This document shows, piece by piece, positions 11,022 through 53,303 of a stretch of DNA of 64,000 nt. Within the stretch, counting starts at the first letter, position 1; the number at the start of each line of letters is the position of its first letter. Below the pieces are notes generated by a model that saw nothing but the letters and a program-made list of their open reading frames with translations, was not told the DNA's origin and did not search any database. Source of the DNA: Escherichia coli (GTDB taxonomy: Bacteria; Pseudomonadota; Gammaproteobacteria; Enterobacterales; Enterobacteriaceae); NCBI GenBank assembly GCA_005400705.1, contig GCA_005400705.1_4079.1; one strand, given 5' to 3'. The position numbers and the translations under genes were made by a program.

Positions 11022-11031
11022 GGAAAGTACA

Positions 11032-11586: not shown

Positions 11587-11595
11587 AGGGTGCTG

Positions 11596-13958: not shown

Positions 13959-13959
13959 A

Positions 13960-14867: not shown

Positions 14868-14869
14868 TA

Positions 14870-16099: not shown

Positions 16100-16407
16100 T
16101 GACTAAAAATGAATTTGATTCACTTTGTACGGTTTATAATTCATTGACAGAAATACCTGACTTTATTAATTACATTTCAGCTTTAAATCAAATTATGCAT
16201 AGTTTTGAACAATCGTTTGAAGAGAAATATGCAGGTAGAAAAGTTCTATGTCATATGTCAATGTACTTGGGAGATGGTGAGCCTTACACTACCAGTACTA
16301 CATGTGAAATAAAAAAATATAATATATTATTGGGGACAATAGAATTCAAGGTATCCAATGGTGGTAGTTATATGTACTTTAGAGATGGAGTGGTTGAATT
16401 ATTATGA
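16099..16407 (+). CDS. family D-like small protein
   Basis: Motif EEKYAGRKVLCHMSMY; tiling ORF. Confidence 0.55.
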   Translation: MTKNEFDSLCTVYNSLTEIPDFINYISALNQIMHSFEQSFEEKYAGRKVLCHMSMYLGDGEPYTTSTTCEIKKYNILLGTIEFKVSNGGSYMYFRDGVVELL

Positions 16408-16853
16408 GTTACGAAAGTGCAATCAAGAAAGCAAATGATATTCTAAAAGTTGTTAAGTTCTTCAAAGAAAATCCTGAATACTTAGCTGATGAAAACCATG
16501 ATCACGATGAGAGATTGAGACGAAAAATTGTTTCTTTATTTGACACTAATGCAGATAATTATAGTCTAATTGAGTTAGCATACGATTATATTTCATTGAA
16601 CCGAAACGGAAATTTAGTTAATATAGAAAGACATGAGAGTGAAGAATCTTTTAAAATTTCAGACATTTTATCCCTGAGTACTGAAGAAGGGTACTTCCAG
16701 GGTAGTACTGTTTATGAACAAGGAACACTTGACAATCTATGCACATTCAGTGTAATATATCAGAAATCAGTACTGGATGTATTTTATCTTGACACTGCTG
16801 AACTGGATACACTAACCAATTTTGTTACTACTGAAGAGGCCACATTCGAGTGA
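16404..16853 (+). CDS. family B protein
   Basis: Core EEGYFQGSTVYE. Confidence 0.65.
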   Translation: MSYESAIKKANDILKVVKFFKENPEYLADENHDHDERLRRKIVSLFDTNADNYSLIELAYDYISLNRNGNLVNIERHESEESFKISDILSLSTEEGYFQGSTVYEQGTLDNLCTFSVIYQKSVLDVFYLDTAELDTLTNFVTTEEATFE

Positions 16854-17751: not shown

Positions 17752-18301
17752 TTTAGATCTTGCGTTTGAACGTATGGTAATTTTAATGCAATGTGCAGAA
17801 ATGCATGAAACAATCCGTCGCACCAAAGGGATTGAATATACAAGTAAACTATTCTCATACGAAAGTCGTCGAGGGATGGATCATTTTTACTGCACTGATT
17901 GTTCAAAGTTTTCAGTACTGAAATATTATCATCCTACTGTTTCCAATAATAGTTTAATATCCACATATGATGGTGATCTGTTTAGTGTAATGTATGACAC
18001 ATTACATCCATCAATTTCAATCTATAAAGATTGCGATAGTAGTTTATCGTATATAATTGAAGATTACTTATCTCCTAATACTGAAGAGAATATTTTTCAG
18101 AACAGTGTGTTGCATGATGAATTAAGTATAAAATGCATCTATATGTTCAATAAGTTAAAAGAGTACGCCGATAATAATTACTTCATTGATGATTTAGCGG
18201 TATTGTCTGTTTCCGTTTTTAATACAAATGATATTGATATGAAATACTATAATGAGATTTGTAAAGTACATCATATGTATAAGGAACTATTATGTCAATA
18301 A
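17741..18301 (+). CDS. family B protein
   Basis: Core EENIFQNSVLHD. Confidence 0.65.
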   Translation: MYDDLDLAFERMVILMQCAEMHETIRRTKGIEYTSKLFSYESRRGMDHFYCTDCSKFSVLKYYHPTVSNNSLISTYDGDLFSVMYDTLHPSISIYKDCDSSLSYIIEDYLSPNTEENIFQNSVLHDELSIKCIYMFNKLKEYADNNYFIDDLAVLSVSVFNTNDIDMKYYNEICKVHHMYKELLCQ

Positions 18302-18899: not shown

Positions 18900-19262
18900 A
18901 TGAACACATTAAGTATTACATACTATACAACTAAAAAATTAGTTACTTGTTTAATATCTTTGAAGACAAACCATGATGATATGTTTGATATGGCTGCATA
19001 TGAATTAGAATTATCAGAAGATGGCTTCAAGAGCTATGAATTATATAGCTATGTCCGTGAAGATGTAATTGACACTACACTAATGCAAGAGGATGAGTTA
19101 TTCCAAGAAAGTTTAGTATGGGATAATAAGTACGATTGTAACTTTGATTTCTTATGTTTAATCCAGAAAGAAATGAAAAGAATCTTTGATAATTATCCAA
19201 TCAAACGTTTCAGTACTGCACCTGAGCAATATAAAAGGATTATATTCACCTATGAAGATTGA
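18900..19262 (+). CDS. family B protein
   Basis: Core EDELFQESLVWDNKY. Confidence 0.65.
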   Translation: MNTLSITYYTTKKLVTCLISLKTNHDDMFDMAAYELELSEDGFKSYELYSYVREDVIDTTLMQEDELFQESLVWDNKYDCNFDFLCLIQKEMKRIFDNYPIKRFSTAPEQYKRIIFTYED

Positions 19263-19629
19263 ATTTGAAGTTATTACATATAGTATAGGTGATGGTATCC
19301 GTTGCTATGTACAAGCAAGGCATATGGTTCCTGATGATAAACTGTCACCCAAAAGCTTCTGTATCACACAAGATCTCTTAGATATCAACGGAGAGTACAA
19401 GTACATATATTATCTTACTAAGGGTTATTGTAGTACACGTGGTTTTAATATTGTAGCTGTTTCTAGAGATGAAATTGATGATTTAACTGAGTACGGGGAA
19501 GAAGAGATGTTCCAGTACAGTACTGTTTTTAATGAACTGGATGTGTTTCTGTTACGAAAAATACAACACATTATGCAAAAATGTTTGCATCATAAGAGAG
19601 GTATTGTATGCGACGTGAATCTGAATTAG
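19252..19629 (+). CDS. family B protein
   Basis: ATG 19252 overlapping upstream end; core EEEMFQYSTVFN. Confidence 0.6.
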   Translation: MKIEFEVITYSIGDGIRCYVQARHMVPDDKLSPKSFCITQDLLDINGEYKYIYYLTKGYCSTRGFNIVAVSRDEIDDLTEYGEEEMFQYSTVFNELDVFLLRKIQHIMQKCLHHKRGIVCDVNLN

Positions 19630-19949
19630 TTAAAGTAATGTACGCTACTCATATTAAACTACTACTTGTTAAATTTGATTATAATAAAAAACATAATGAT
19701 TTCTATACTTTAATTCGTGATGAAAATACATTCTCCTTGCGATGCAACAATATACCCTTGAAGATAAATGATTTTACTTCACTTGACGAGGGGGAATTAT
19801 TTCAAGAATCATTAGTTTTTAATAGTAATATAAAAATTGATATAGAAGTTATTAAAAAATACCAGATTCTATTGAACAAAATTATGAATTGTTATCCATG
19901 TGAAATAGGTGGTCATATGCAGTTCAAATCAAAAATGTATGAATTATGA
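19608..19949 (+). CDS. family B protein
   Basis: Core EGELFQESLVFN. Confidence 0.65.
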   Translation: MRRESELVKVMYATHIKLLLVKFDYNKKHNDFYTLIRDENTFSLRCNNIPLKINDFTSLDEGELFQESLVFNSNIKIDIEVIKKYQILLNKIMNCYPCEIGGHMQFKSKMYEL

Positions 19950-37538: not shown

Positions 37539-37832
37539 ATGTCAGTACTGTTCAAAACCAATCCAGTACTTTGGGATCAAAATGAGCAATCAGGATTTCG
37601 TTCCATCCATGTTGAATACAAAGGTAATACTGTAGTTGCAATTATTGCTAACAAAACTCTAGGAAACTGGACTGCACAGGTTGTTCCTATGGGATATTCT
37701 TACACATCTGATGAGGTTCAATTCCTGGCTGAACTATATCGTCAAGTGCCGTTTATCATTAATGTACTAGAAGGTAATGATACATTATCACATGAAGATG
37801 TGATTAATTTTCTTGGAAACTTACATGTGTGA
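37539..37832 (+). CDS. hypothetical protein
   Basis: 97-aa tiling ORF. Confidence 0.55.
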   Translation: MSVLFKTNPVLWDQNEQSGFRSIHVEYKGNTVVAIIANKTLGNWTAQVVPMGYSYTSDEVQFLAELYRQVPFIINVLEGNDTLSHEDVINFLGNLHV

Positions 37833-38753: not shown

Positions 38754-39029
38754 ATGAATTATAAAGTTCTACAATATACATACAGTGTTTTGTTTGATTT
38801 ACATCACAATGGAAGATATCTCAATACAATACGAGAAAACACATTCACTCATACTATCTGGATTAATCACTTAATAATGATACGTGAATATTTTGTTAAT
38901 AGTGAGATAATCATTCGTGGTAAAAAACAGAAGATAGAACAAGTTAATAGTTTTGGTGGTAAATTAGTACTATCATTTATAGATAGTAATACTAATGAAA
39001 GATATAGTATAGATTTGGTGGACATATGA
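38754..39029 (+). CDS. family C small protein
   Basis: N-terminus MNYKVLQYTYSVLFDL. Confidence 0.6.
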   Translation: MNYKVLQYTYSVLFDLHHNGRYLNTIRENTFTHTIWINHLIMIREYFVNSEIIIRGKKQKIEQVNSFGGKLVLSFIDSNTNERYSIDLVDI

Positions 39030-39292
39030 ATTATAAAGATTTCCTACTAACATACAAGATTATTCGAGATTTAGCACACGACAATGATAGCCCTAGTCTA
39101 GAAGACACATGCACTGAAATGATTCATACAATTCGTGGTAAGATTAAAAAAAAATTCAGTACTGTTATTATTGGTGATGACCATGCAGAATTTTCTGATA
39201 TAATCATTAGACGTGATGGTAAAGTTGAGGTTCAGTACTACACTGATTTTGGATTTACCAGTATTCCGTTGGAGATATTCCCTTGGGATTAA
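39026..39292 (+). CDS. family C small protein
   Basis: N-terminus MNYKDFLLTYKIIRDL; ATGA overlap. Confidence 0.6.
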   Translation: MNYKDFLLTYKIIRDLAHDNDSPSLEDTCTEMIHTIRGKIKKKFSTVIIGDDHAEFSDIIIRRDGKVEVQYYTDFGFTSIPLEIFPWD

Positions 39293-39594
39293 ATTTAAAT
39301 GATATACAATTCACTTATAAGATCCTATATGATTTGTATGATTTATACCTTGTTAGTAACAAAATAGGTTCACATAACTCATCCAAAGAACAACCATTTA
39401 TTGATTTATATATTGAGTACTTAGATTCAGTAGGTGAATATATAAAAAAGAATTACAGTACTTTTAACGATGGAAATGATATATTCGAGTTCTCTGGAGT
39501 TAAATCATACAATGGGATTATCCATGTTGAATTTCTTGAAATAACCGATAGGGGATTTATCGAGATTAAAGTTGTGAAGTTGGTGAATTTATAA
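39283..39594 (+). CDS. family C small protein
   Basis: LNDIQFTYKILYDLYD; apparent TTG start after GGAG. Confidence 0.5.
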   Translation: MGLNLNDIQFTYKILYDLYDLYLVSNKIGSHNSSKEQPFIDLYIEYLDSVGEYIKKNYSTFNDGNDIFEFSGVKSYNGIIHVEFLEITDRGFIEIKVVKLVNL

Positions 39595-39604
39595 GAGGTT
39601 ACAT

Positions 39605-39916
39605 ATGTTATTAAATGATATACAATTCACATACAAATTTTTGTATATCCAATACGCTACGGTTGATGCTGGAGAATATCTCTACGGTGAAATCTATCGT
39701 TCGGTATGGATAAAGTTTTTGGATGAATTACATGAATATTACCATGATTTGTGTATAGTTCGTGATAATAAAATATACAAATTCCGCGATATTGTTAGTC
39801 ATAGCGGTAAGCTACGATTGGAATTAAGTACTGATAGTGATGTTGATTGGATTGGTGTAAATTTACTGGAGTTGGAGAATGAAAAACAACTTAAAGGAAA
39901 TACAAGTATTTTATAA
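39605..39916 (+). CDS. family C small protein
   Basis: N-terminus MLLNDIQFTYKFLYIQY; RBS GAGG. Confidence 0.6.
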   Translation: MLLNDIQFTYKFLYIQYATVDAGEYLYGEIYRSVWIKFLDELHEYYHDLCIVRDNKIYKFRDIVSHSGKLRLELSTDSDVDWIGVNLLELENEKQLKGNTSIL

Positions 39917-40163
39917 ATTCTTATACTTGTCATATGTAAAAGATGAGTACTATGAAAGTGTGTATTATTTTTTATGGCAACATTACCGTACTATAGTAAG
40001 AGATTTATATATAGGAAAATCTATCATATCCAATGGTGAAAAATGTATATGTACTGATGTTGTTAGTTTTAATGGTTCTTTAACACTGTGTTTCAGATGC
40101 GATAATAATAGTGGGTCATTTTCATTAAACGTATATCAGTTAGAAGGAATAAATTTTGAATAA
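39879..40163 (+). CDS. family C small protein
   Basis: EIQVFYKFLYLSY. Confidence 0.55.
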   Translation: MKNNLKEIQVFYKFLYLSYVKDEYYESVYYFLWQHYRTIVRDLYIGKSIISNGEKCICTDVVSFNGSLTLCFRCDNNSGSFSLNVYQLEGINFE

Positions 40164-40356
40164 ATGTCCATATTGTAACAGTACTCAATTAGCTCGTTTC
40201 CGTTTAGATTCAGACTGGGCGACTGGTGCTGGTGATTTCTTCCCTATTAATGATGATGCGGAATACACCGAAGAACAGCACAAAGATTTTGATAAATCAT
40301 GGCGACCTGACATTGAGTGCATTTATTGCCTTAATTGTGAGCGTGTTCATGACTAA
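40156..40356 (+). CDS. small zinc-ribbon protein
   Basis: Two CxxC pairs: CPYCNS and CIYCLNCERV. Confidence 0.55.
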   Translation: MNKCPYCNSTQLARFRLDSDWATGAGDFFPINDDAEYTEEQHKDFDKSWRPDIECIYCLNCERVHD

Positions 40357-40612
40357 AGCTGAACTAATAGTTCATACATATAAAATGATATCAAGTACTA
40401 AGTTATCATATAGTGAAGATAATCCAGTACTGGATTATTTTGTTGAATTATTGAAAGAGCATTATATTGGTAAATCACTGATTCTTAATAATATTAATTT
40501 CACGGTAAAGGATGTAGCACCTGGAAAAAACGTACTAATAGTATGTGTTACTTCATCTGATAACCCAGTATACCCAATATCAATAATTTTTGAGATATTA
40601 GGAGATTTATGA
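40349..40612 (+). CDS. family C-like small protein
   Basis: ATG 40349 overlapping upstream stop; MTKAELIVHTYKMI ... EHYIGKSLI. Confidence 0.5.
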   Translation: MTKAELIVHTYKMISSTKLSYSEDNPVLDYFVELLKEHYIGKSLILNNINFTVKDVAPGKNVLIVCVTSSDNPVYPISIIFEILGDL

Positions 40613-40899
40613 ATATCATTTTAATGCAGAAAACATATGCTATATTGGTGAAAGATTATTCCATTACTTTCGATTCACAAGAAAGTGCTCTACATAACCT
40701 ATACAAAAACGTAACACAAGAATACAGAAATATGTTTTCTGACTTAGTAGTAGGAAGGTATTTCAGTACTAGAAAATACCCAAAACTTCAAATAGTTGAT
40801 GTTTCTTTTTATTTCAATGGTCATATTACTATTCATAGTTTAGACCAAGATTCAACAACGTACTTAAACTTTTCATTTGATGAGGTAACATTTTTATGA
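40609..40899 (+). CDS. family C small protein
   Basis: MNIILMQKTYAILVKDY; ATGA overlap. Confidence 0.6.
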   Translation: MNIILMQKTYAILVKDYSITFDSQESALHNLYKNVTQEYRNMFSDLVVGRYFSTRKYPKLQIVDVSFYFNGHITIHSLDQDSTTYLNFSFDEVTFL

Positions 40900-41072
40900 G
40901 AACAGTATTTTTTATCTGGAGTCTTTTTTCATTGGCAGTACTGACAGTATGTGGGATTTGTTTCCTTTCATCAATTAATACTTGGTATATCAATTTACTA
41001 TTTCCATTTGTCTGTGTTGGTTTAGGGTTTACTTTGCATAGTGTATGTAAGGATTACAATGAGAACAAATGA
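40896..41072 (+). CDS. small membrane protein (58 aa, absent from ORF track)
   Basis: ATG 40896 in ATGA overlap with upstream stop; two hydrophobic segments (FFIWSLFSLAVLTVCGICFL, LLFPFVCVGLGF). Confidence 0.45.
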   Translation: MRTVFFIWSLFSLAVLTVCGICFLSSINTWYINLLFPFVCVGLGFTLHSVCKDYNENK

Positions 41073-41337
41073 AGTACTTATTGCTGAAACAATGAAGATG
41101 ATTTACAATATCACGTCAGCACAGAATATGCCCTATCCAACTAAGTCTTTATTGAGGACTGTGTATCTGGGGATAGTACAGGAGTACTACAAATCCAAGC
41201 ACCGAAGCATTATTAGTGTTTATCGTGATTATGAAAGGATTCGTATTTTATTCTGGAACAAGAATCGAGTACGTTCTGAATGTGACCTAGTGGACTTTAA
41301 ATTAGAGAATCTTTATTGCTATAAACAGGGACAATAG
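41059..41337 (+). CDS. family A-like small protein
   Basis: ATG 41059 after AAGGA; motif YLGIVQEYY. Confidence 0.5.
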   Translation: MRTNEVLIAETMKMIYNITSAQNMPYPTKSLLRTVYLGIVQEYYKSKHRSIISVYRDYERIRILFWNKNRVRSECDLVDFKLENLYCYKQGQ

Positions 41338-41345
41338 TTTAATTC

Positions 41346-41354
41346 ATGATATAA
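41346..41354 (+). promoter_or_regulatory. extended -10 box TGATATAAT
   Basis: Exact TGATATAAT about 40 nt upstream of ATG 41396; no good -35. Confidence 0.4.
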
Positions 41355-41395
41355 TAATGGGTAAGGAACAATAATTAACACAAGGAGTGTGTGAA

Positions 41396-42124
41396 ATGCT
41401 TGACCGTATCCGTTTCGCTACAGAGATGGCGAATGAATTAAACATGGCAAATTTCCAAATGTTAACATCAGTAATGGCTGAACATGCATGTGCTTATTCT
41501 GTAAGTGGTGTGCAGTGTGGTCAGGAGAATATGTTAGCAGATGTTTATAGTGAAGTGCAAAGTAAGCAATATAGTGTAAAGACATATAAGGATAAGTTTG
41601 TTAGTCTTTATATGAACGAAGATATTGCCGAAGACCGTAAATTCACTGATTTTATTATTGAACGACGAGTATCAGGTGTATCTAATCCTAATGCATCAAG
41701 CGAGGAAGTTTTTGCAGAAGTACTGAAAGATATATACGAAAATGAATTAAAAAGTAAGAATCATTACAATGTACGTGAAACTAACACAGTGCTCTTGGGA
41801 TATGATGAAGACGAAGAATACTATTATTTTCGTATGACTGAAGTTCCTTTTGAATACAAATCTCCATATACAACTACAGTGAAAGAATTTACTGAAAAAA
41901 GTAAAAACTTCATGAAGCATGAAGGAAATCGTTGTAGTATAAATGGTTACGACGAAAATGGCATTCACATTTATGAATGGGTTCACCCAAATTGTCAGAC
42001 ATACACTCGTTGCTTGAAAAAACGTTATAATTTAGAAGAGCATGAATCATTCTATTTTAAAGTTAAGAAGCAAGGTTACACTCGCCCCGCCGATTCTGAA
42101 TTGATGGGTATGATATATTTCTAA
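41396..42124 (+). CDS. hypothetical protein
   Basis: ATG 41396 nine nt after AAGGAG 41382-41387; 242 aa. Confidence 0.6.
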   Translation: MLDRIRFATEMANELNMANFQMLTSVMAEHACAYSVSGVQCGQENMLADVYSEVQSKQYSVKTYKDKFVSLYMNEDIAEDRKFTDFIIERRVSGVSNPNASSEEVFAEVLKDIYENELKSKNHYNVRETNTVLLGYDEDEEYYYFRMTEVPFEYKSPYTTTVKEFTEKSKNFMKHEGNRCSINGYDENGIHIYEWVHPNCQTYTRCLKKRYNLEEHESFYFKVKKQGYTRPADSELMGMIYF

Positions 42125-42134
42125 GGAAACTTCT

Positions 42135-42416
42135 ATGGATTTTTATCTACACACATGGACATACGAACAATATATTACATTATATCTTGAAATTATTAAC
42201 ACAGAACCTAGGTGTGGTTGTTGGTTCGCAGATATCATAAAAGAGTATGCTGACGAGTTCGAGTTTGTGTATCTTGGGTCTGATATATTTGTAAAAAGTG
42301 TAGGTAAAACCGGACGAATCACTGATATAGATTACGACACTGTTAGTGTGAATTTCTATGTTGATTTTCCTGATGCTGGCGTTGATGGTGTATATTGTCT
42401 TTATGAAATAATTTAA
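42135..42416 (+). CDS. hypothetical protein
   Basis: 93-aa ORF followed by terminator. Confidence 0.55.
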   Translation: MDFYLHTWTYEQYITLYLEIINTEPRCGCWFADIIKEYADEFEFVYLGSDIFVKSVGKTGRITDIDYDTVSVNFYVDFPDAGVDGVYCLYEII

Positions 42417-44036: not shown

Positions 44037-44300
44037 ATGAATATTAAAGATAGATTACAATTACTATACACTATTGAACAGGCTGCTTTTGAACTTGTTA
44101 ATAAAATCTCCGAAGAACTTCCCAAAGGAACTATAGTTCGTGTAATTGAGAGGGATTATGAATCTGGAGAAATTGAAGAACTAGTACTAACCGTGAATAA
44201 AGTAACATACTATGAATCTGAGTTGGCTATCCAATGTATATCGGAAGATGGTAAAATATACTATTATGACACTGGTGTAGATATAGAGGTAATAAAATGA
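44037..44300 (+). CDS. hypothetical protein
   Basis: ATG 44037 after GGTGGA. Confidence 0.5.
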   Translation: MNIKDRLQLLYTIEQAAFELVNKISEELPKGTIVRVIERDYESGEIEELVLTVNKVTYYESELAIQCISEDGKIYYYDTGVDIEVIK

Positions 44301-45439
44301 CCCTTTTACAAATATATGAAGATTTAATGCACTTATGTAATACAAACGATGCGTTTTTTTATGTGGATCATAAAAGTCCTGCTGGTGGTACGTATCGTGT
44401 ATTCAGTTATCGTCTAGCATCATACACTGATTTCATGCAACCAAATGCGTTGGAAACCCGTGGCTCTATGTGGGAAATTGATGAAGAAGGTGACATGATA
44501 CGTTGTGCAGCACGTACAATGAAAAAGTTCTTCAATGCTTACGAGAATCCTGCTACAATGTTCCCTGCTAACACCACATGCGATGACATTGCGGTAGTGA
44601 TGCCTAAGTTGGATGGTTCGATTATCAGTACTTATCGTGATAATGATGGTGAGATTCGTTGTAAATCACATACTGCATTGTATTCTGACCATGCGATTAA
44701 CAGTACTCGACTTATTAACGAGAACCAGAATTTGTACCAGTACATCGACGAAGCGGAACGTTTAGGTTACACAGTTAATATGGAGTATACAAGCCCAGAG
44801 TACCGAATTGTATTACCATATCAGGTAGAACAACTGTTTGTACTGAACGTTCGACATCGTGTGAGTGGTGAGTTGCTATGTGGTAAAGCACTACGTGATA
44901 AGTTTCCATGTCTTGCACAGTACAGTACTAATATGACTGGAAAAGATATTCATCACACTTTTCCGGTACGAAATACCTTCCGTGAAAGCGTGGAGGAAGT
45001 TCATAAAATGCTTGATATTGAGGGTTTTGTGTGCATCCTAAATAATGGGACAATGTGTAAAATAAAGACTGACTGGTACAGTTCATTACATCTTACAAAA
45101 GATAGTATTATTATTGATTCTCATTTATATGAAGCCGTATTAAATGGTTCAAGTGATGATTTAAAACAATTGTTCAGTACTGATGAATATGCTATGCAAA
45201 AGATATTAAGAATGGAACAATTGGTATTTTCGTGCTATAATGCATTACAAGATGAAGTAGAAAGCTTCGTCAAGGAACACAAGCACTTGGAGCGAAAGGA
45301 ATTCGCAATGAAGGTTCAGGAGTGTTTAACTAATGAACTGAATCGTCAGGGCTTGGCCTTTGCAATGTATAACAATAAGAAAGTTGATTACAAAGAGACT
45401 CTTATAAAATACATGAAAATTGTACTAAAGGATTTTTAG
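44297..45439 (+). CDS. rnlA: RNA ligase 1 (T4 RnlA-like)
   Basis: Remembered similarity to T4 Rnl1: N-terminal TYRVFSYRLASYTDF, RGSMWE and lysine-adenylation motif PKLDGSIIS; length 380 aa. Confidence 0.8.
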   Translation: MTLLQIYEDLMHLCNTNDAFFYVDHKSPAGGTYRVFSYRLASYTDFMQPNALETRGSMWEIDEEGDMIRCAARTMKKFFNAYENPATMFPANTTCDDIAVVMPKLDGSIISTYRDNDGEIRCKSHTALYSDHAINSTRLINENQNLYQYIDEAERLGYTVNMEYTSPEYRIVLPYQVEQLFVLNVRHRVSGELLCGKALRDKFPCLAQYSTNMTGKDIHHTFPVRNTFRESVEEVHKMLDIEGFVCILNNGTMCKIKTDWYSSLHLTKDSIIIDSHLYEAVLNGSSDDLKQLFSTDEYAMQKILRMEQLVFSCYNALQDEVESFVKEHKHLERKEFAMKVQECLTNELNRQGLAFAMYNNKKVDYKETLIKYMKIVLKDF

Positions 45440-45733: not shown

Positions 45734-45964
45734 ATGAAAGTTGAAGTTCAGCATAGTATTGTTCAGGATATGTCAGTAGTTAAATTTCTTTCTCTGAAAG
45801 ATTACTTCAGATGTATCAAGTTCCTAGAAGAATCTCAATTACAGTGGACCCCATTAAAGTACAGTTCATCCAATGATACAGCTAGTATTCGTTGTGATGA
45901 ATCTGTACTTGTGAAAATCTCCAAACGATTTGGAGTAGGAAAAGTTAATGAGCACAGTAAGTGA
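45734..45964 (+). CDS. hypothetical small protein
   Basis: 76-aa ORF after AAGGAG. Confidence 0.55.
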   Translation: MKVEVQHSIVQDMSVVKFLSLKDYFRCIKFLEESQLQWTPLKYSSSNDTASIRCDESVLVKISKRFGVGKVNEHSK

Positions 45965-46202
45965 CCTAAAATACTACAACAAAACTGCGGATACGTTTAT
46001 TACTCATTTATATGAAGAATTTAGTCGTATCCGTAAGGAATATACAGGTAAATGTATTTTATATAGTTCTTATCATAGTGGTGGAATTGAAAGTGCTTAC
46101 ATTACTAAAGTGAAGTTTTCTGATGACTATCAATTACTCTTTGAATTAGATGATTGTTTCGTTATTGAAGCTTGTTTGATAGTGGATGTTCTAGATAATT
46201 GA
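45948..46202 (+). CDS. family D-like small protein
   Basis: Motif KEYTGKCILYSSY. Confidence 0.5.
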   Translation: MSTVSDLKYYNKTADTFITHLYEEFSRIRKEYTGKCILYSSYHSGGIESAYITKVKFSDDYQLLFELDDCFVIEACLIVDVLDN

Positions 46203-46208
46203 GGACAT

Positions 46209-46523
46209 ATGAATAAAGAACTTGCATTTGAGAGGATCGAAAAGTTAAAGTACATTGAAAAGGAACTAATAAAATCTGTCGAATCAATGGTCGAAGATTA
46301 CGTTTTCGATTTTAAGAAAACATTGATTGGATGTAAAGTTAAATGCTGGGATCATACAATCAGAGAATGGTTCAGTACTATAATTCTTGATGTTAAAGTA
46401 TCGCGTACTGCTATTGGTAATTTAGTAAATGGTGAATGCTTTGTATACACTGAATACAATAACGGAACAAGAAACCTTTCAAGAGGATGGCACAAACTCG
46501 AAGATGTAGAATTCATTGAGTAA
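46209..46523 (+). CDS. family D small protein
   Basis: Motif KTLIGCKVKCWDH; RBS GAGGA. Confidence 0.55.
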   Translation: MNKELAFERIEKLKYIEKELIKSVESMVEDYVFDFKKTLIGCKVKCWDHTIREWFSTIILDVKVSRTAIGNLVNGECFVYTEYNNGTRNLSRGWHKLEDVEFIE

Positions 46524-46535
46524 CAAGGAGTAATA

Positions 46536-47468
46536 ATGCCAACTATTACACTAACAGTTGGATTACCTGGGTGTGGTAAAACCACATGGGCAGTTCAAGA
46601 AATTAAAAATGCCAAATCCAAGACTATCAACATCAACCGTGATGATATTCGTGAATCTATGGCTGGGTCACATGATGCTTACAAATTCAACGATGCTAAT
46701 GAGCAGTACGTAACTAATTTACAGTTCAGTGCAGCAAATTCAGCAGCAGAGAATGGTTGGAACATCATCATATCCGATACAAACCTTAAACAACATTTCC
46801 GTAATCTCTGGAAAGTATGGGCTAAAGATAATGGTTATGATTACAAAGAAAAGAACTTCTATGATGATTTTGTACCTAATGAAGACCGTGGTGCAGATGT
46901 TCATGAATTCTTTAAGATTAAAGAGTTCGTAAAACTTTGTAAGAAATATAACCTTCAGCGTGAGCGTTCAGTACAAGATAATATCATTGACACAATGGCA
47001 GATACGTACTATTATAGTAAGGCATTGCACATTGGTTACTATGGTAATTCACGAGAAGCTGCTGTTATCGTTGATATTGACGGTACTCTTGCTCATAAAT
47101 GGGGTCGTAATCCTTACGATGAAAGTACTGTTCTTCAGGATACACCTGATGAAGAAGTTATTTTGTCTATTATCGCTGAAGCAGTTTTTCATAAACGCAA
47201 GATTATCGTCATGAGTGGGCGTACTGAAGGGTGTCGTACTGACACCGAACAGTGGCTTAAGAATTGGGGTGTTCCTTACGATGCATTGTTTATGCGAGGC
47301 ATCGATGATAAACGTCCTGATGATGTTGTTAAATTCGACCTGTACATGAAAAATGTGGTTAATCAATACGATGTTAAAAAGGTATATGATGACCGCGAAG
47401 CCGTGACGTTCATGTGGCGTAAGCTACTTGGTTTGAAGGTATTTCAAGTAGATTTTGGACGTTTTTGA
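46536..47468 (+). CDS. pseT: polynucleotide 5'-kinase / 3'-phosphatase (T4 Pnk-like)
   Basis: N-terminal P-loop LTVGLPGCGKTTWA and HAD phosphatase motif VIVDIDGTLA; 310 aa. Confidence 0.8.
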   Translation: MPTITLTVGLPGCGKTTWAVQEIKNAKSKTININRDDIRESMAGSHDAYKFNDANEQYVTNLQFSAANSAAENGWNIIISDTNLKQHFRNLWKVWAKDNGYDYKEKNFYDDFVPNEDRGADVHEFFKIKEFVKLCKKYNLQRERSVQDNIIDTMADTYYYSKALHIGYYGNSREAAVIVDIDGTLAHKWGRNPYDESTVLQDTPDEEVILSIIAEAVFHKRKIIVMSGRTEGCRTDTEQWLKNWGVPYDALFMRGIDDKRPDDVVKFDLYMKNVVNQYDVKKVYDDREAVTFMWRKLLGLKVFQVDFGRF

Positions 47469-47508
47469 TAAAATAAATAGTGCATATATGACAAAAAGGA
47501 CTTTCTAT

Positions 47509-48195
47509 ATGCACTATTATATTATATATAAAATAACCAATTTAATTAATAATAAAATTTATATTGGTGCTCATATGACTGATGACATAAATGATGAATA
47601 TATGGGTTCAGGTGTTCTGATAAAGAAATCCATTAAGAAATATGGAATTGAAAAATTCAATAAAGAAATACTTTATATTTTTGATAATAAAGAAGAAATG
47701 TATAACAAAGAAAGAGAAATTGTTAATGAACAATTTATACAAAGAAGCGACACATATAACATCAAACGTGGTGGAGAAGGTGGCTACGGCGTAATTGATA
47801 AAGAAAATTGGAAAAAACAAATATCAACGGCACAAAAGAAGCGATATTCTTCAGGTGTTGTGGCTTGGAATAAAGGTAAATCTGTATCAGAAGAAACACG
47901 TATTCAAATGAGTCAGAGGATGAAAGGTCGTTTCCCTGGAGATAAAAATCCTATGCATGGTAAACCCTGTACATATAAAATGACAGATGAAGAAAAAACA
48001 TCATGGTCCAACAATATAAAGAAATCAAACACTGGTAAAAAGAGAACTGATGTTCAAAAACAAAAATATTCTTCGGTCGCGTCAAAACGAATTTGGTTAG
48101 TTCATAAAAGTGGTAAAGTTACTAATACACAAAATGAAAATGACCCACGTTTGAATGATCCAGATTGGCAACGTGGTCAAAAGTGGAGAGAATGA
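47509..48195 (+). CDS. GIY-YIG homing endonuclease
   Basis: YIIYKITNLINNKIYIGAH ... NIKRGGEGG motifs and NUMOD-like WNKGKS repeats; very AT-rich; start could be ATG 47488. Confidence 0.7.
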   Translation: MHYYIIYKITNLINNKIYIGAHMTDDINDEYMGSGVLIKKSIKKYGIEKFNKEILYIFDNKEEMYNKEREIVNEQFIQRSDTYNIKRGGEGGYGVIDKENWKKQISTAQKKRYSSGVVAWNKGKSVSEETRIQMSQRMKGRFPGDKNPMHGKPCTYKMTDEEKTSWSNNIKKSNTGKKRTDVQKQKYSSVASKRIWLVHKSGKVTNTQNENDPRLNDPDWQRGQKWRE

Positions 48196-48220
48196 ATATT
48201 TTTATGGATTATAATTTTTG

Positions 48221-48246
48221 AGGGATCATAATTTGGTCCCTTTTTC
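48221..48246 (+). terminator. rho-independent terminator
   Basis: Hairpin GGGATCA-taatt-TGGTCCC followed by TTTTT. Confidence 0.6.
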
Positions 48247-48439
48247 TTTTAAGGTACATTATAGTGAATGTAACAACACAGATGTTATTGCGAAAAGACT
48301 ACTTAGAAAATATAGAAAGATTCTATAGAATGTCTTTGTATGAAAATAAACATAAAAATTATAATTTTGATAAACTACTAAATTCCAGTACTGATGATTA
48401 TCTATTTTCATCAATGTTTTATGTGAGAGGTTTATTATA

Positions 48440-48700
48440 ATGGATAAATTTCACACAGATATAACACAGATAGGTAATCTTATCAATAGTCTAATTACTG
48501 ATTTAGAAGAAAAGTATTTAGGTCGAAATGTATACGTAGAAATGTATGAAACATATGGTGTTATTGATATGATTTATTACAGTGCATTGAAGTGTGAAAT
48601 ACGTTTAACAGTATGTTTGTTTGAAAAAAATACATTCAACAGAAGTACTGCAATTCGCCAAGTTGGAGTTGATGATATAGAATTATACGAGGAACAATGA
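48440..48700 (+). CDS. family D small protein
   Basis: Motif DLEEKYLGRNVYVEMY. Confidence 0.55.
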   Translation: MDKFHTDITQIGNLINSLITDLEEKYLGRNVYVEMYETYGVIDMIYYSALKCEIRLTVCLFEKNTFNRSTAIRQVGVDDIELYEEQ

Positions 48701-48951
48701 TGTTTGAGCAGGACTTAGAGATATTCAAAAGTCATATTGATTACTTGACTATATTAGAAAATGATTTAACTACAAAGTACAAAGGTATTCGTGTTCTGTG
48801 CTGGTATGATGATTGGGATTATAAACGTGAACTCACTATTGATCGAATTTATTTCAGTGACGGTGTACTAAATGTACATGGTGTAAATGATTTTGGTCAT
48901 TCATATACATATTCTAATAATGCTAAATTTAAAAGGATCTGCAATGAATGA
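48697..48951 (+). CDS. family D small protein
   Basis: Motif DLTTKYKGIRVLCWYD; ATGA overlap. Confidence 0.55.
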   Translation: MMFEQDLEIFKSHIDYLTILENDLTTKYKGIRVLCWYDDWDYKRELTIDRIYFSDGVLNVHGVNDFGHSYTYSNNAKFKRICNE

Positions 48952-49246
48952 ATATTATCATAATTTATTCGATTACATAAAACTAATAGATGATCTTTCT
49001 TTTGAATTTCTCAGTACTGAAAAAGTTCTTGAACCTCTCTATTATGATTGTATTAGTTCACTATCTTTAGATGAAAAAGAGATATTATCAAATAATTTAC
49101 CGTCAACCGTCTGTGTAATCAATGGTTCCAAGGCTGTGGTGTCTGAGGTTAATTTTCATAAATCACTTAATACAATTGTTTACAAGTTCGATAACACTTG
49201 GATCAATCATGTAACCAGTAATATTAAATCTGTGAGATTTTTATGA
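48944..49246 (+). CDS. hypothetical protein
   Basis: ATG 48944 overlapping upstream stop; AAAGGA upstream. Confidence 0.5.
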   Translation: MNEYYHNLFDYIKLIDDLSFEFLSTEKVLEPLYYDCISSLSLDEKEILSNNLPSTVCVINGSKAVVSEVNFHKSLNTIVYKFDNTWINHVTSNIKSVRFL

Positions 49247-49539
49247 ATATAAAAAAATTATTTGAACAAGTAAATTTATTGTACTGGTGTTCAGACGGTT
49301 CAGATAAGGAATATAGTGAAGTTTATTTAGAACTGTTTAGAACTGAAATTCATTATATTCGAAGATACTTAATTGATAACAAAACTAAAGTACAAGTAAG
49401 ATACCATAACGGTACTTTAAAGGATGGTATAATTATTGGATTGATAGTTGCACGATGGTCTAGTAATATTAAAGTTGCAGTAAGATTAATGACTGATGAT
49501 GGTGTCTACACAATAGAAGCTAGTGAGATTATATATTAA
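49243..49539 (+). CDS. hypothetical protein
   Basis: 98-aa tiling ORF; ATGA overlap. Confidence 0.55.
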   Translation: MNIKKLFEQVNLLYWCSDGSDKEYSEVYLELFRTEIHYIRRYLIDNKTKVQVRYHNGTLKDGIIIGLIVARWSSNIKVAVRLMTDDGVYTIEASEIIY

Positions 49540-49845
49540 ATGGATATACAAACATTCAATAAGCTAAAGTACTATGATAATGGTTTTGCATTAATAATTA
49601 ACGAACTTGATGGGATACCATACGAATATCATAATCAATTAATGAAGATAGTAAAATGTATATGTGAAGAATTAAAAAGTATGTTTAAAAATGAATATGT
49701 TTATGATTTAGGTAATAGTAGCAAAAAACTATACATAAAGAAATTCTGGGGAACGCATTGTGGTTTAATGGTCGATTTAGGTTTAAGTTTAGACGATAAT
49801 TCTGAATCATGTTCATTATATATAGATGAAATGCGAATATCATGA
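49540..49845 (+). CDS. hypothetical protein
   Basis: 101-aa tiling ORF. Confidence 0.55.
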   Translation: MDIQTFNKLKYYDNGFALIINELDGIPYEYHNQLMKIVKCICEELKSMFKNEYVYDLGNSSKKLYIKKFWGTHCGLMVDLGLSLDDNSESCSLYIDEMRIS

Positions 49846-49860
49846 GACGTATCAGAATTC

Positions 49861-49885
49861 GGTGATATAATTTGATTACATCACC
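49861..49885 (+). promoter_or_regulatory. TGATATAAT box embedded in a hairpin
   Basis: TGATATAAT 49863-49871 inside inverted repeat GGTGAT 49861-49866 / ATCACC 49880-49885; just upstream of RBS GGAGAAG. Confidence 0.45.
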
Positions 49886-49902
49886 AATGTGGAGAAGTTG
49901 AA

Positions 49903-50229
49903 GTGAATGGTTCGTTTTTAACAATTTTAGAAAAGACATCCGAGATGCTTTCTAGTTCGTTAATGCACATTTTCAGTACTAATAATTTATACAATACCCA
50001 GGTGTTAGATTCAATTAGTAATAACTATGTGGTAAGTATATCTGATGAAATATGTCCATTTAATGCGTATACGAATTATAGTGTAGAAGAGTTTCATATA
50101 TCCGAAATTCGATGTGGTTTTGGTGCTTGGTTAGTTCTAAATGAACGTTCAGGGACGTCTTTATACATCGAAGAAATTGATAAATTTATATACAAAGGAG
50201 TAGAATATGTTAACCCCAATCATTCTTAG
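49903..50229 (+). CDS. hypothetical protein
   Basis: 108-aa ORF; apparent GTG start after GGAGAAG. Confidence 0.45.
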   Translation: MNGSFLTILEKTSEMLSSSLMHIFSTNNLYNTQVLDSISNNYVVSISDEICPFNAYTNYSVEEFHISEIRCGFGAWLVLNERSGTSLYIEEIDKFIYKGVEYVNPNHS

Positions 50230-50836
50230 CAGTGCATATGTAATCGGTATTATTATTTCTGGTATGCTTGCATATAACTATAACAGAAGTGTTCTAGGTT
50301 ATGTAGTACTTGGTACAGTACTAAGTCCAGTGATTGCTATTGGTCTTCTTGTTATGCTAGGTGAGAAAAATACAAACTTCTTTATTACTAAAGAACTTGA
50401 TAAAATCACCCCAGCACCAGAAACAGTTATTCCAGAAGTTAAAGAAGAAGTTAAAGAAGTTGAAGTGCAAATGCAAGTTAAAGTGTATAATACACTTGAA
50501 GAAACTGACCCTAAAGTTGTAGTGAATGTAGTTCCAGTCGTTGAAGATGTGAAACCAAAAGCTCCTAAAGCACAGAAAAATACTAAAACTGCAAAGAAAG
50601 CTCGTTACACTAAAGGTAAGAACAAAGGTAAATCTAAGGATGAACCACAACTAGGTGTTCATGACCATACTGCACAAATTGCAACGGCAGCGACCGCAGC
50701 AGCAATCGTAACATCACCAATCTACAACAATGATGATTACAGTGATTATAGCCGTCACAGCAGTTCTTCCTCTGATTCTTGTTCCTATGATAGCTCTAGT
50801 TCTGATTCAAGTTCATCTTCTGGAAGTTGTGATTAA
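50207..50836 (+). CDS. membrane protein with low-complexity C-terminal region
   Basis: Two N-terminal hydrophobic helices; lysine-rich middle; Ser/Asp-rich tail SSSSSDSCSYDSSSSDSSSSSGSCD. Confidence 0.6.
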   Translation: MLTPIILSSAYVIGIIISGMLAYNYNRSVLGYVVLGTVLSPVIAIGLLVMLGEKNTNFFITKELDKITPAPETVIPEVKEEVKEVEVQMQVKVYNTLEETDPKVVVNVVPVVEDVKPKAPKAQKNTKTAKKARYTKGKNKGKSKDEPQLGVHDHTAQIATAATAAAIVTSPIYNNDDYSDYSRHSSSSSDSCSYDSSSSDSSSSSGSCD

Positions 50837-51165
50837 TGTCAATGAAACCACTAATTCAACATAATATTTTTTATAGGTCATTATTCAAAATTCAAGATGA
50901 TTTTTATCAGACGTTGAGTAATGATCTTATAGGTAAAACTGTACGATATTCGGAACAATACATCAAACGTATGACAAGTCAGTATATTGACCCTGAATAC
51001 GAATACGACATTGAACACATTAATCCCAATACTAGAATGAAAATCATTGAGATATTTAAGAATGGGAGAACTATAGGTGCTGAAATTGAGTACTTGAATT
51101 GTGATTGTTACATAGATACAGAGTTGAGTTTGGATTATCTTGTTTTAGTGGATGATGAGGAATAA
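50836..51165 (+). CDS. family D small protein
   Basis: Motif NDLIGKTVRYSEQY; TAATG overlap. Confidence 0.55.
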   Translation: MSMKPLIQHNIFYRSLFKIQDDFYQTLSNDLIGKTVRYSEQYIKRMTSQYIDPEYEYDIEHINPNTRMKIIEIFKNGRTIGAEIEYLNCDCYIDTELSLDYLVLVDDEE

Positions 51166-51167
51166 TT

Positions 51168-51383
51168 ATGATAACATTTTTCGCAATATATGGATTTGTA
51201 GCATTTGTTACATTTATAACCAACTTTCTAGTACTTAATTGGGGTTGTTTTAAAGATGAAATCATGATTATCATGAATCTCCAAACAGCAGCACTGATGG
51301 CTATTATTTGGCCTGTAACGTTAGTATATATTTTTATTTCACTTACCCAAGATATTATTAACAAATATAAGAGAAAGAAATAA
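51168..51383 (+). CDS. small membrane protein
   Basis: Two hydrophobic segments; RBS GAGGA. Confidence 0.55.
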   Translation: MITFFAIYGFVAFVTFITNFLVLNWGCFKDEIMIIMNLQTAALMAIIWPVTLVYIFISLTQDIINKYKRKK

Positions 51384-51634
51384 TGTTCAACAACGACTTA
51401 TCACATTTGCGATATCTTATGTCTTTGGCTGATGATTTTATAAATGATCTGAAGCCAAAATATATTGGTCAAGAAGTACGATTAATAAACTCCAGAGGGT
51501 ATGGAAAATATATTATTACTGATATGTATATTAGTGGTGGTGAATGGCGTTTTAAAATTAATACTTATCTTAAAGATGGTTCTTTTGCTGGAACACAAGT
51601 TACTAAACACACTAATATTATATGGTTGGAGTAA
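51383..51634 (+). CDS. family D small protein
   Basis: Motif DLKPKYIGQEVRLINS; TAATG overlap. Confidence 0.55.
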   Translation: MFNNDLSHLRYLMSLADDFINDLKPKYIGQEVRLINSRGYGKYIITDMYISGGEWRFKINTYLKDGSFAGTQVTKHTNIIWLE

Positions 51635-51636
51635 TA

Positions 51637-52380
51637 ATGAAACATTTCTTAGAAGTAACCGTACCTGATGATAAAGATTTATACATTGTAGGTGATTTGC
51701 ATGGTAATGGTAAACTATGGGATGCTACAGTGAAAGAATTTGGTATTACACACAATGATTATGTTTTCAGTGTAGGTGATATTATCGACCGTGGAGAACA
51801 AAATTCAAAGCTCCTTTTTGAATTTTTGTTCGGAGAAAATCGTTACATGATTGCAGGTAATCATGAGATGATGTGCGTTGATTCGGAAACACTTCGAGAT
51901 TGGTATCATTGTTGGATAAGTAATGGTGGTGATAAATTCCTTGATGAAGTTGGAGGAACAGGCATTCAATTCTTTCGTCAGTACTTAAAAGATCTCCCTA
52001 TGATTATCCAAATCAATCACCGAGGCTTGAAGATTGGGTTAGTTCATGCTGGAGTTCCGTTGGAATATACAACATGGGAACGATTTGTTAATGGGACAAA
52101 ATCACTTAGTGCTGATATAATTGATAAGTGCTTGTGGGATAGGAAAACATTCGATTATTGTAGAACGAATAATACCTATTATGCACCTAAGTTAGATGGA
52201 GTGCATTGTGTCTTTAGTGGACATACAGCAGTTACTGATCCACTCATTTATGGTAATCGCATTTGGATTGATAGTCAGTTCTTGACGGGTGACTTAACTC
52301 TCGCTACTCCACAAAGTGGTGGGATGAGATACTTACGTAAAGAAAAAGATGAATACTCATTCAATCGTTTCAAAAGGTAA
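51637..52380 (+). CDS. Ser/Thr protein phosphatase (lambda-PPase-like metallophosphoesterase)
   Basis: Motifs GDLHGN, GDIIDRG and GNHE in canonical order; ATG 51637 after GGAG (track start 51622 is in frame but overlaps the upstream gene). Confidence 0.8.
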   Translation: MKHFLEVTVPDDKDLYIVGDLHGNGKLWDATVKEFGITHNDYVFSVGDIIDRGEQNSKLLFEFLFGENRYMIAGNHEMMCVDSETLRDWYHCWISNGGDKFLDEVGGTGIQFFRQYLKDLPMIIQINHRGLKIGLVHAGVPLEYTTWERFVNGTKSLSADIIDKCLWDRKTFDYCRTNNTYYAPKLDGVHCVFSGHTAVTDPLIYGNRIWIDSQFLTGDLTLATPQSGGMRYLRKEKDEYSFNRFKR

Positions 52381-52385
52381 TAATT

Positions 52386-52655
52386 ATGCATGATGTAGTT
52401 AAAAAATATTTGAATGATAGATATATTATGAAAAAATCTATTAATTCTATCCTAAAAGATCATGCTAATCAAATACGTGAGATTCTATCAAATAAACTTA
52501 TTGGTTGTTCAGTTGAGTTCAATTACAAAAAGAATGTAGTGAAGATTGGAGTTATTAAACGTGTAGTTGCTGTTTATGACCAAAATGTATATGTTGAAAT
52601 TGAATATGATGGTAAATTATCACAATTAAGTACTGAAGATTTAACATTTTTATAA
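52386..52655 (+). CDS. family D small protein
   Basis: Motif NKLIGCSVEFNYK. Confidence 0.55.
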   Translation: MHDVVKKYLNDRYIMKKSINSILKDHANQIREILSNKLIGCSVEFNYKKNVVKIGVIKRVVAVYDQNVYVEIEYDGKLSQLSTEDLTFL

Positions 52656-52665
52656 GGAAATAGAA

Positions 52666-52893
52666 ATGAAAGTAATTCAAGTTATGGTAGAAAAATACCA
52701 AACTGAAGATGGTCGTATTTTTGATTCAGCTAAACAAGCTGAACACCATGAACGTATTATTTCGGGTGCACGTAAAGTGTGTCCTACATGTAATGGAACA
52801 CAACAAGTACCGTCAGAAGATTACCGCAGCTTTTATGCTTGTCCACACTGTGATGGGAAAGGCTATGTAGAAAAACAAGAGGTATGGAAATGA
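52666..52893 (+). CDS. small zinc-ribbon protein
   Basis: CPTCNG ... CPHCDGKG. Confidence 0.55.
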   Translation: MKVIQVMVEKYQTEDGRIFDSAKQAEHHERIISGARKVCPTCNGTQQVPSEDYRSFYACPHCDGKGYVEKQEVWK

Positions 52894-53303
52894 AATTGTA
52901 TTGCTTAACTAATATGTACTGTCAAGGTGTCCAAGCTGGTATTCAAGCATTCCATGCTGGTGTTAAACTAATTAAAGAATATGAAGGTACTGCTTTCAGT
53001 ACTATTATTGATGAATGGTACTATGAACACGAAACTATTGTAGTACTAAATGCTGGTGGACATGATAAATTAAATTCTTATTATAACAACCTTAGCAAAC
53101 AGGGGAAAGTTCCGTTTGCCAAGTTCAATGAAGCTGGATTGAATGATGCTATTACCTGTGTAGCAGTACTGTGTACGTCTGAAATGATTGAAGACATGGC
53201 TGTTATGCGTATGAATCTTCCTGCTGGTGATCAACTAATGCAAGTAAAATATGGTGCATTGTTTGACACACTAAAAGCAATCAGTACAATGAGGACTATT
53301 TGA
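52890..53303 (+). CDS. hypothetical protein
   Basis: ATG 52890 in ATGA overlap, nine nt after GAGG. Confidence 0.55.
   Translation: MKLYCLTNMYCQGVQAGIQAFHAGVKLIKEYEGTAFSTIIDEWYYEHETIVVLNAGGHDKLNSYYNNLSKQGKVPFAKFNEAGLNDAITCVAVLCTSEMIEDMAVMRMNLPAGDQLMQVKYGALFDTLKAISTMRTI

Follow-up and report, generated by a model that had tools for sequence, protein, structure and literature searches.

A divergent family of small, predicted helix-and-barrel proteins around the RNA-repair genes of an Asteriusvirus

What are the small genes that stand between the RNA-repair, phosphatase, and ligase genes of a jumbo coliphage, and are they related to one another? We addressed this question in a 64,000-nucleotide stretch of DNA (hereafter called the window) that is deposited under Escherichia coli assembly GCA_005400705.1 and comes from an Asteriusvirus, i.e., a 121Q/PBECO4-like jumbo coliphage. 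An earlier note, made from the sequence alone, had listed eight such genes as dispersed paralogs with a shared motif and had suggested that they were repeatedly inserted or retained as spacers. Our answer, to which we assign a probability of roughly 0.6, is that the genes are a lineage-specific expansion of proteins predicted to consist of a helix and a small barrel, being old duplicates that diverged in place and probably act as nonenzymatic binding modules.

The window has a G+C content of 32% and codes nearly entirely on the plus strand. Its region 45900–52700 shares 98% identity with Escherichia phage 121Q and 92.5 to 98% with at least 19 further Asteriusvirus records (310–385 kb, coliphage and Salmonella phage entries). 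The seven listed genes of this interval correspond to 121Q gp441, 442, 445, 446, 452, 454, and 456, which are annotated coding sequences, and the eighth, at 16099, corresponds to gp376 (173592–173900); all are called hypothetical. Their 121Q neighbors are annotated as RNA ligase (gp438), polynucleotide kinase (gp443), Ser/Thr phosphatase (gp455), and DNA ligase (gp460).

Relatedness of the eight listed genes

The eight open reading frames (ORFs), which we name by their first positions (Table 1), were all found where the earlier note had placed them, although their actual lengths are 83 to 109 residues rather than about 85. The signature ascribed to all of them, (D/E)L-x2-KY(I/L)G-x2-V, is present in strict form in 48440 and 51383 only, whereas a looser form occurs in all eight. 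KYxG itself is found in half of them (16099, 48440, 48697, and 51383), the others having EYTG, TLIG, DLIG, or KLIG. A relaxed pattern, [LFI]xx[KDTEN][YL]xGxx[VI], which was defined post hoc, after inspection of the data, matches all eight at residues 22 to 43 and gives 10 matches among the 146 proteins of the window, compared with 1.4 expected from shuffled sequences.

Pairwise comparison weighs against a family. BLASTP among the eight gave marginal E values (0.008–1), and they remained unclustered when all window proteins were compared with one another at E < 1e-3, which puts their pairwise similarity at noise level; the five top window matches of 51383 are nevertheless all family members. 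These E values would fit an alternative in which the ORFs are unrelated small orphans that share a helix–Gly–strand junction and an AT-rich amino acid composition, as would the separate treatment of the ORFs in PHROGs and the occurrence of similar local strings in unrelated proteins (ribosomal protein eS7, ELEKKFSGKHVVF, and a 3263-residue repeat protein).

Leave-one-out profiling was the decisive test. Hidden Markov models (HMMs) built with one member omitted were scored against all 146 window proteins, about 139 of which are nonmembers. The omitted member ranked first in six cases out of eight, at 10.2 to 22.5 bits (Table 1), 52386 came second, and 45948 fifth. With the full eight-member profile, the highest scores were 10.3 bits for nonmembers and 11.1 bits for shuffled sequences. 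By score, five of the eight stand above this noise ceiling, 52386 and 48697 lie near it, and 45948 lies below it, so that the last three are borderline, which is a further point against a family of eight. For other profile searches, the homologous regions of phages 121Q, UE-S1, A4, JNE01, Turkey5, RaK2, and Serratia phage BF were added, and every search contained decoys made by reversal and by shuffling. The membership of 48697, 52386, and 45948 is supported by their positional counterparts in A4 and JNE01 and not by their own scores: these counterparts, although divergent, have the motif and were recruited by the profile search, to which not one decoy was admitted.

The motif also stayed aligned when the full length of the proteins was considered. 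MAFFT placed the motif Gly of all eight in a single invariant column; this Gly is invariant across the 22 sequences of a second alignment and is replaced by N, D, or K in a few homologs of a 34-sequence set. Length, architecture, motif position, and a C-terminal strand are common to the members. Unrelated orphans of like composition are an improbable explanation, given that omitted members ranked first among some 140 proteins of the same composition, that decoys of identical composition were never admitted to the iteration described below, that the members share the features just named, and that all matches in a phage genome of 604 ORFs fall inside one 36-kb stretch. Hence, the leave-one-out profiles and the invariant Gly bear out the relatedness that had been claimed, and the eight ORFs are, as judged from these profiles, a real and very divergent paralog family, although the motif is looser than described.

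Predicted fold, fixed slots, and possible role

AlphaFold2 models were obtained for 51383 and for 39879, a gene of the tandem array discussed below. The best model of 51383, from the 22-sequence alignment, has a predicted local distance difference test score (pLDDT) of 75 and shows a helix (residues 2–27) followed by strands at 31 to 36, 39 to 51, 54 to 62, and 68 to 75. The model of 39879, based on 29 sequences, has a pLDDT of 88.9 and a predicted template modeling score of 0.73, with a helical hairpin (5–44) and strands at 48 to 51, 54 to 64, 67 to 74, and 80 to 84. In structure comparisons, the four to five bent antiparallel strands correspond to an SH3/Tudor-like small β-barrel. Each protein is thus predicted to be an N-terminal amphipathic helix or helical hairpin followed by such a barrel. 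Two points weigh against this assignment: four of the five 51383 models have a pLDDT of only 55 to 60, which gives moderate confidence, and the 39879 alignment included core members, so that the second model is not fully independent.

In these models, the motif forms the junction between helix and barrel: (K/D)(Y/L) would end the helix, the near-invariant Gly would make the turn, and x-x-(V/I) would open β1. The end of the helix, the Gly, and β1 fall at the same point in both models. A variable loop follows β1, and the last strand is the acidic–hydrophobic C terminus (e.g., EDLTFL or DVEFIE).

The barrel resembles domains of CarD, UvrD, and Mfd, which suggests RNA polymerase as one candidate target, as a lead only. 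Taken further, the barrels could all mimic the Tudor-like RNA polymerase-interacting domain of CarD/CdnL, Mfd (TRCF), and UvrD/PcrA, dock on the lobe of the host RNA polymerase β-subunit, and redirect or block host transcription. The location of the genes in a nonstructural block fits this idea, as does the annotation of 121Q, which points to the host polymerase with the phage's own sigma factors. We nevertheless consider it unlikely. Sequence identity to these domains is 4 to 12%, and Pfam CarD_CdnL_TRCF was not matched at E values up to 1 (ten members) or up to 0.1 (eight extended members). Hfq, LSm, chromo, BAH, and EF-P domains score nearly equally, so that the ranking barely separates small barrels from each other, and one conserved target surface is hard to square with a dozen or more divergent copies. 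The phage proteins also differ from these domains in being free-standing, in having a long N-terminal helix or hairpin before the barrel, and in their many paralogs. DUF1653 and other small SH3-like phage proteins show no sequence match to the family, to which the N-terminal helix and the KY-x-G-x-x-V junction are specific.

The described scattering among enzyme genes is real for 45948–52655, where the members are interleaved with genes for T4-type RNA ligase 1, PseT, a Ser/Thr phosphatase, and, further on, DNA ligase, whereas 16099 lies inside a different paralog array. The copies are, however, not dispersed in a manner that sets them apart from the other paralog families of the window, as had been stated; they form a loose cluster, which probably includes the array at 38754–40163. 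In a census of 604 ORFs and 1208 decoys, covering the 348-kb 121Q genome minus 399 bases, all matches above the decoys were located at 173.6 to 209.4 kb, that is, inside the part represented by the window, and all except the 16099 copy at 196.2 to 209.4 kb, a span of 13 kb.

The conserved genes around the members are ordered as c245, RnlA, s85, s76, PseT, a 209-residue membrane protein, a 71-residue membrane protein, phosphatase, (zinc finger), PTH2-like protein, h400, and DNA ligase, and this backbone is largely kept from the window to Serratia phage BF. In all Asteriusviruses examined, single family members precede rnlA, follow the gene for the 209-residue membrane protein, and stand on either side of the phosphatase gene, and pairs of them lie between s76 and pseT and again after pseT. 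The synteny comparison proposed in the earlier note thus gave the same slots in 121Q, UE-S1, A4, JNE01, and Turkey5, and several are also filled in Klebsiella phage RaK2 (before rnlA, before pseT, and near the phosphatase gene). The homologous region of Serratia phage BF contains no family members, although rnlA and pseT are kept.

Repeated insertion finds no support in these data, as the slots are constant among relatives, and neither DNA-level repeats nor mobile-element features were found flanking the copies. The fixed slots and the absence of flanking repeats indicate that the arrangement is old and that the genes diverged in place. Mobile or homing cassettes do not describe the genes either, since there are no repeats between copies and the slots are conserved in six relatives; a nearby GIY-YIG-like ORF is a separate insertion. 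Promoter-like sites are no commoner than in shuffled sequences. The family resembles the expansions of small orphan paralogs in plastic regions of T4-related and jumbo phages, as arrays of genes for 80 to 110 residues on one strand between conserved enzyme genes that are clade-restricted, fast-evolving, and unassigned in function. It differs from them in that its positions are fixed rather than shuffled and that no mobile promoter/stem-loop cassettes were seen.

The listed genes show the mark of purifying selection. The ratio of nonsynonymous to synonymous substitution rates (dN/dS), in comparison with UE-S1, is 0.02 to 0.25 for the listed members, 0.6 for 43992, and 0.04 to 0.11 for the enzymes, and a Shine–Dalgarno-like sequence precedes nearly every start. 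Divergence from A4 and JNE01 is large: members are mostly 30 to 55% identical (dN 0.37–0.84), whereas RnlA, PseT, the phosphatase, and DNA ligase are 74 to 93% identical (dN 0.04–0.19). As proteins, the members evolve some four to six times as fast as the enzymes next to them. An exception is formed by 45948 and 46209, which are some 90% identical to JNE01 (dN 0.05). Nonfunctional filler or decaying ORFs that do nothing except space the enzyme genes would account for this very fast divergence between phages and for the lack of a known function or domain. We give this spacer explanation hardly any weight, considering the purifying selection on the listed members, reading frames that are intact in every phage examined, the ribosome-binding sites, the confident predicted fold, and the fact that the genes abut or overlap by a few bases, which makes spacing unnecessary. 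In the UE-S1 record, the 51383 ortholog (14120–14377) seems truncated, being annotated as a 38-residue coding sequence; an intact 85-residue ORF can be read there, and we regard this as an annotation choice and not as a pseudogene.

The exception noted above belongs to a mosaic pattern. The genes 45948 and 46209 are 90 to 91% identical to their JNE01 counterparts and 31 to 38% identical to those of A4, and for the adjacent pseT the order is reversed (79% for JNE01 and 88% for A4). The alleles at 45948–46523 suggest recombinational exchange of small-gene alleles between Asteriusviruses.

Interleaving with rnlA and pseT could also mean that the proteins are Sm/Hfq-like RNA-binding proteins that work with Rnl1 and PseT, for instance as holders of broken tRNAs. 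This possibility is weakened by the charge of the proteins and by the retention of the repair enzymes without the family in Serratia phage BF. The median isoelectric point is 5.0; 14 of 17 members are net negative, which argues against a basic face, with net charges of −1 to −12 for most. The situation in BF indicates that the enzymes do not need the members, and members also occur away from the repair genes (16099 and 38754–42416). In addition, Pfam LSM and Hfq were not matched and the Sm1/Sm2 motifs are lacking, and the helix comprises 26 to 40 residues, two to three times the approximately 12 found in Sm/LSm/Hfq proteins. Altogether, we find a role as RNA-binding partners of the repair enzymes quite improbable.

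We favor nonenzymatic binding modules because none of the members has a conserved polar residue of a possible catalytic kind, because the proteins are mostly acidic and lie in a nonstructural block, and because they combine purifying selection with rapid change. No family gene is flagged as structural in the 121Q annotation, and the virion proteins of RaK2 map to two gene clusters elsewhere, not to those that bear the family (PMC3622015). Old duplications in the block of rnlA, pseT, phosphatase, and DNA ligase gave copies that kept to fixed slots and diverged there. According to our proposal, each module would dock on a host or phage macromolecule during host takeover or counterdefense. The binding partner is more likely to be a protein than a nucleic acid, and the diversification between phages would reflect different or fast-changing targets. 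Two points count against the proposal: three members are basic (isoelectric points of 8–9), which leaves room for a nucleic acid role, and the function of every member is inferred. In a bolder version, which is a long shot, a dozen or more diverged Tudor-like barrels would each fit a different surface of the host, and at least one would imitate the domain by which CarD, Mfd, and UvrD dock on the β-lobe of RNA polymerase; together, they would make up a previously unrecognized family of phage-encoded regulators or inhibitors of host transcription and repair, or of defense proteins.

Extent of the family and its surroundings

An iterative profile search at E < 0.01 grew from the eight to 64 sequences without admitting a decoy. 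It recruited the window genes 43992, 38754, 39605, and 39879, and 42135, 5278, and 40226 remained just under the threshold. Profiles built from the ortholog groups of 39026, 39283, 40226, 40609, 42135, and 49540 match family members before any decoy, whereas none of the seven profiles of control genes (45467, 45734, 51168, 52666, 37539, 40896, and 48264) matched family members ahead of decoys. As a clean reciprocal test, a core profile was built without sequences of the 38754–40163 tandem sub-array; its scores were 32, 21.8, and 18.1 bits for RaK2 genes and 17.1 and 14.5 bits for sub-array homologs in Turkey5/JNE01 (3446–3730), with a best decoy of 11.8 bits. Conversely, the 40609 group and JNE01 11762 both outscored the best decoy (10.0 bits) in a search with the sub-array profile. 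Comparison of profiles with hhalign gave P = 8e-4 for the core against the 43992 group (controls, 0.04–0.7). The same comparison counts partly against inclusion of the array, as it is uneven (P = 2.6e-4 with one pair of alignments and 0.12 with another). On this evidence, we take 43992 and 42135 as members, the 38754–40163 array as probably belonging to the family, and 40226, 40609, 49540, and 5278 as possible members.

Some candidates were dropped. The ORF at 37539–37832 fits the relaxed motif, and its ortholog profile matches no family member. Profile searches gave no placement in the family for 48887, 49243, 49903, and 42461. A link to the helical LGTNYQE family described below was rejected, as the 4 to 8 bits reached by some of its members are at decoy level and the architecture differs.

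Table 1. Members and candidate members of the family, with neighboring genes. HMM rank refers to the leave-one-out test; bits are profile scores.
Position	Strand	Assignment	Length and motif	Evidence and remarks
5278–5667	+	possible distant member	129 residues; ELSEKYKGTEFSV	core profile 13.6 bits versus decoy 11.8; two other searches, including the 121Q census, 10.8–10.9 bits, decoy level only
16099–16407	+	listed member	102 residues; EEKYAGRKV	HMM rank first, 19.2 bits; outlier inside a different paralog array
38754–39029	+	probable member, first of tandem sub-array	91 residues	entered decoy-controlled iteration; BLAST cluster with 39283, 39605, 39879
39026–39292	+	probable member, tandem sub-array	88 residues	ortholog profile matches 39283 and 38754 before any decoy
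39283–39594	+	probable member, tandem sub-array	103 residues; true start may be downstream	BLAST cluster; profile matches JNE01 3446 member, 9e-35
39605–39916	+	probable member, tandem sub-array	103 residues	iterative HMM, final profile 37.8 bits
39879–40163	+	probable member, tandem sub-array	94 residues; RDLYIGKSI	AlphaFold-modeled
40226–40612	+	possible member	128-residue ORF, true start probably internal; KEHYIGKSL	sub-array profile 12.9 bits versus decoy 10.0; own profile: top eight nonself matches comprise six already included members and zero decoys
40609–40899	+	possible member	96 residues; end ...DEVTFL	core 12.5 and sub-array 15.2 bits, each above best decoy
42135–42416	+	member	93 residues; EFVYLGSDI	profile matches members JNE01/Turkey5 6502–6774, 1e-13; 14.6 bits in 121Q census
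44037–44300 (ORF opens 43992)	+	member directly upstream of rnlA	87 residues from annotated start; EELPKGTIVRV	best or near-best nonmember in leave-one-out searches; entered iteration; RaK2 gene in same slot 18–32 bits
45948–46202	+	listed member	84 residues; RKEYTGKCI	weakest of the eight by sequence; HMM rank fifth, 6.9 bits; A4 gene in this slot 31% identical, AKYINKRVRY, entered profile search
46209–46523	+	listed member	104 residues; KKTLIGCKV	HMM rank first, 16.8 bits
48440–48700	+	listed member	86 residues; strict motif DLEEKYLGRNV	HMM rank first, 19.7 bits
48697–48951	+	listed member	84 residues; TTKYKGIRV	HMM rank first, 10.2 bits; JNE01 ortholog 39–40% identical, carries KKYVGKRV
49540–49845	+	possible member	101 residues	profile matches members JNE01/Turkey5 11762–12094, 3e-4 to 5.5e-4, before decoys
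50836–51165	+	listed member	109 residues; SNDLIGKTV; long insert after β1	HMM rank first, 14.2 bits
51383–51634	+	listed member, most central	83 residues; strict motif DLKPKYIGQEV	HMM rank first, 22.5 bits; AlphaFold-modeled
52386–52655	+	listed member	89 residues; SNKLIGCSV; end ...EDLTFL	HMM rank second, 11.9 bits; A4/JNE01/Turkey5 orthologs 30–44% identical, KLVG/KVVG/KIVG and ...(L/V)TFL end kept
44297–45439		T4 Rnl1 (rnlA)		Pfam
46536–47468		PNKP kinase/phosphatase (pseT)		Pfam
51622–52380		calcineurin-like phosphoesterase (phosphatase)		Pfam
52666–52893		DnaJ/anti-TRAP-type zinc finger		Pfam
52884–53303		PTH2-like protein		Pfam

Directly 3′ of pseT lies a 246-residue ORF (47455–48195, plus strand) that is missing from 121Q, UE-S1, A4, and JNE01 and apparently from the remaining matching phage records too, each of which covers at most 89% of the query. 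It has concordant subthreshold Pfam matches to GIY-YIG (E = 0.011), SegE_GIY-YIG (0.018), and NUMOD3 (0.003), and is probably, from these matches, a Seg-like homing endonuclease inserted independently after pseT. The 209-residue protein encoded at 50207–50836 (plus strand) has hydrophobic, probably membrane-spanning N-terminal segments and a C-terminal tail that is almost all Ser, Asp, and Cys; a Pfam search gave no match, and its identity to A4 and JNE01 is only 41 to 57%.

The first third of the window is dominated by three further paralog families. In one of them, a helical protein of some 75 residues with an LGTNYQE motif is present 16 times (134–5306 and 17560); another comprises eight copies of about 150 residues (13464–16853, 21032, and 22254), and the third six copies of 113 to 208 residues (10960–13454 and 19186–19949). 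The latter two gave a hint of relatedness in hhalign (P = 0.0015).

The DNA of the window carries a separate signal. AGTACT occurs 184 times, compared with 21 expected, and is by far the most over-represented 6-bp palindrome (e.g., at 17911–17922, TTCAGTACTGAA). CAGTACT is found 163 times versus 6.9 expected, equally on both strands and in all codon phases, and TTCAGTACT 40 times versus 0.57 in shuffled sequences. The whole 121Q genome has 901 AGTACT sites (7.6-fold), peaking at 125 to 150 kb, and the density is about 3 per kb also in RaK2 and Serratia phage BF. AGTACT is a signal at the DNA level and could be a binding, modification, or nicking site; it is not mentioned in the CBB paper, the only related-phage paper searched for it. 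The sites have a mean spacing of about 350 bp, except for a stretch of 7.9 kb at 4532–12480 that lacks them (G+C 0.321 versus 0.324 in the rest) and has a corresponding gap in 121Q at 161.8 to 169.4 kb. This block may have been acquired from outside the lineage. The second-largest AGTACT-free gap (47124–48387) contains the putative Seg-like ORF.

Distribution and meaning

Pfam and NCBIfam gave no match for family members. In PHROGs, each listed member with a match falls in a different group, all of them unassigned in function, and 45948 has no match. An exhaustive HMMER search of 1.84 billion representative sequences with the eight-member profile returned only Asteriusvirus-type orthologs and one spurious protein, the 3263-residue repeat protein mentioned above (P0033, E = 2.6e-4), which was discarded because of its repeated look-alike 'DLADAL..VLTGQTIRLL'. 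Word-indexed homolog searches agreed with this result, the second of them (with the 34-sequence profile) adding RaK2-type copies only. Among PDB sequences, no significant match was obtained with a profile; RAE-1β and ribosomal protein eS7 came out on top (E = 0.012–0.028) and were rejected as local helix–Gly–strand look-alikes, and Foldseek against viral models (BFVD) gave no match below E = 0.005. Within the reach of sequence searches, the family is confined to jumbo phages of the RaK2-like kind that infect E. coli (Asteriusvirus) or Klebsiella.

The papers examined on RaK2, CBB, UE-S1, and jumbo phages in general mention paralogs in bulk only (reportedly approximately 10% of RaK2; PMC3622015) and do not describe the family, its motif, or its fold. 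The family is previously undescribed and of an ordinary kind, namely a clade-specific expansion of small barrels within a plastic portion of the genome of a jumbo phage. What is new is the definition of the family and not the phenomenon, which is typical of orphan expansions in jumbo phages and will not surprise specialists.

About 80% of the genes in these 350-kb phages are annotated as hypothetical (e.g., 487 of 595 in UE-S1). Here, 13 to 19 such genes, which PHROGs kept separate, are joined into one family with a predicted fold, a reading of the motif, a territory, and an evolutionary tempo. The members form a concrete, short list of candidates for screens of host takeover and counterdefense in phages that are under consideration for therapy. 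If any copy does bind RNA polymerase or a defense protein, the members would amount to a natural library in which a single scaffold is varied.

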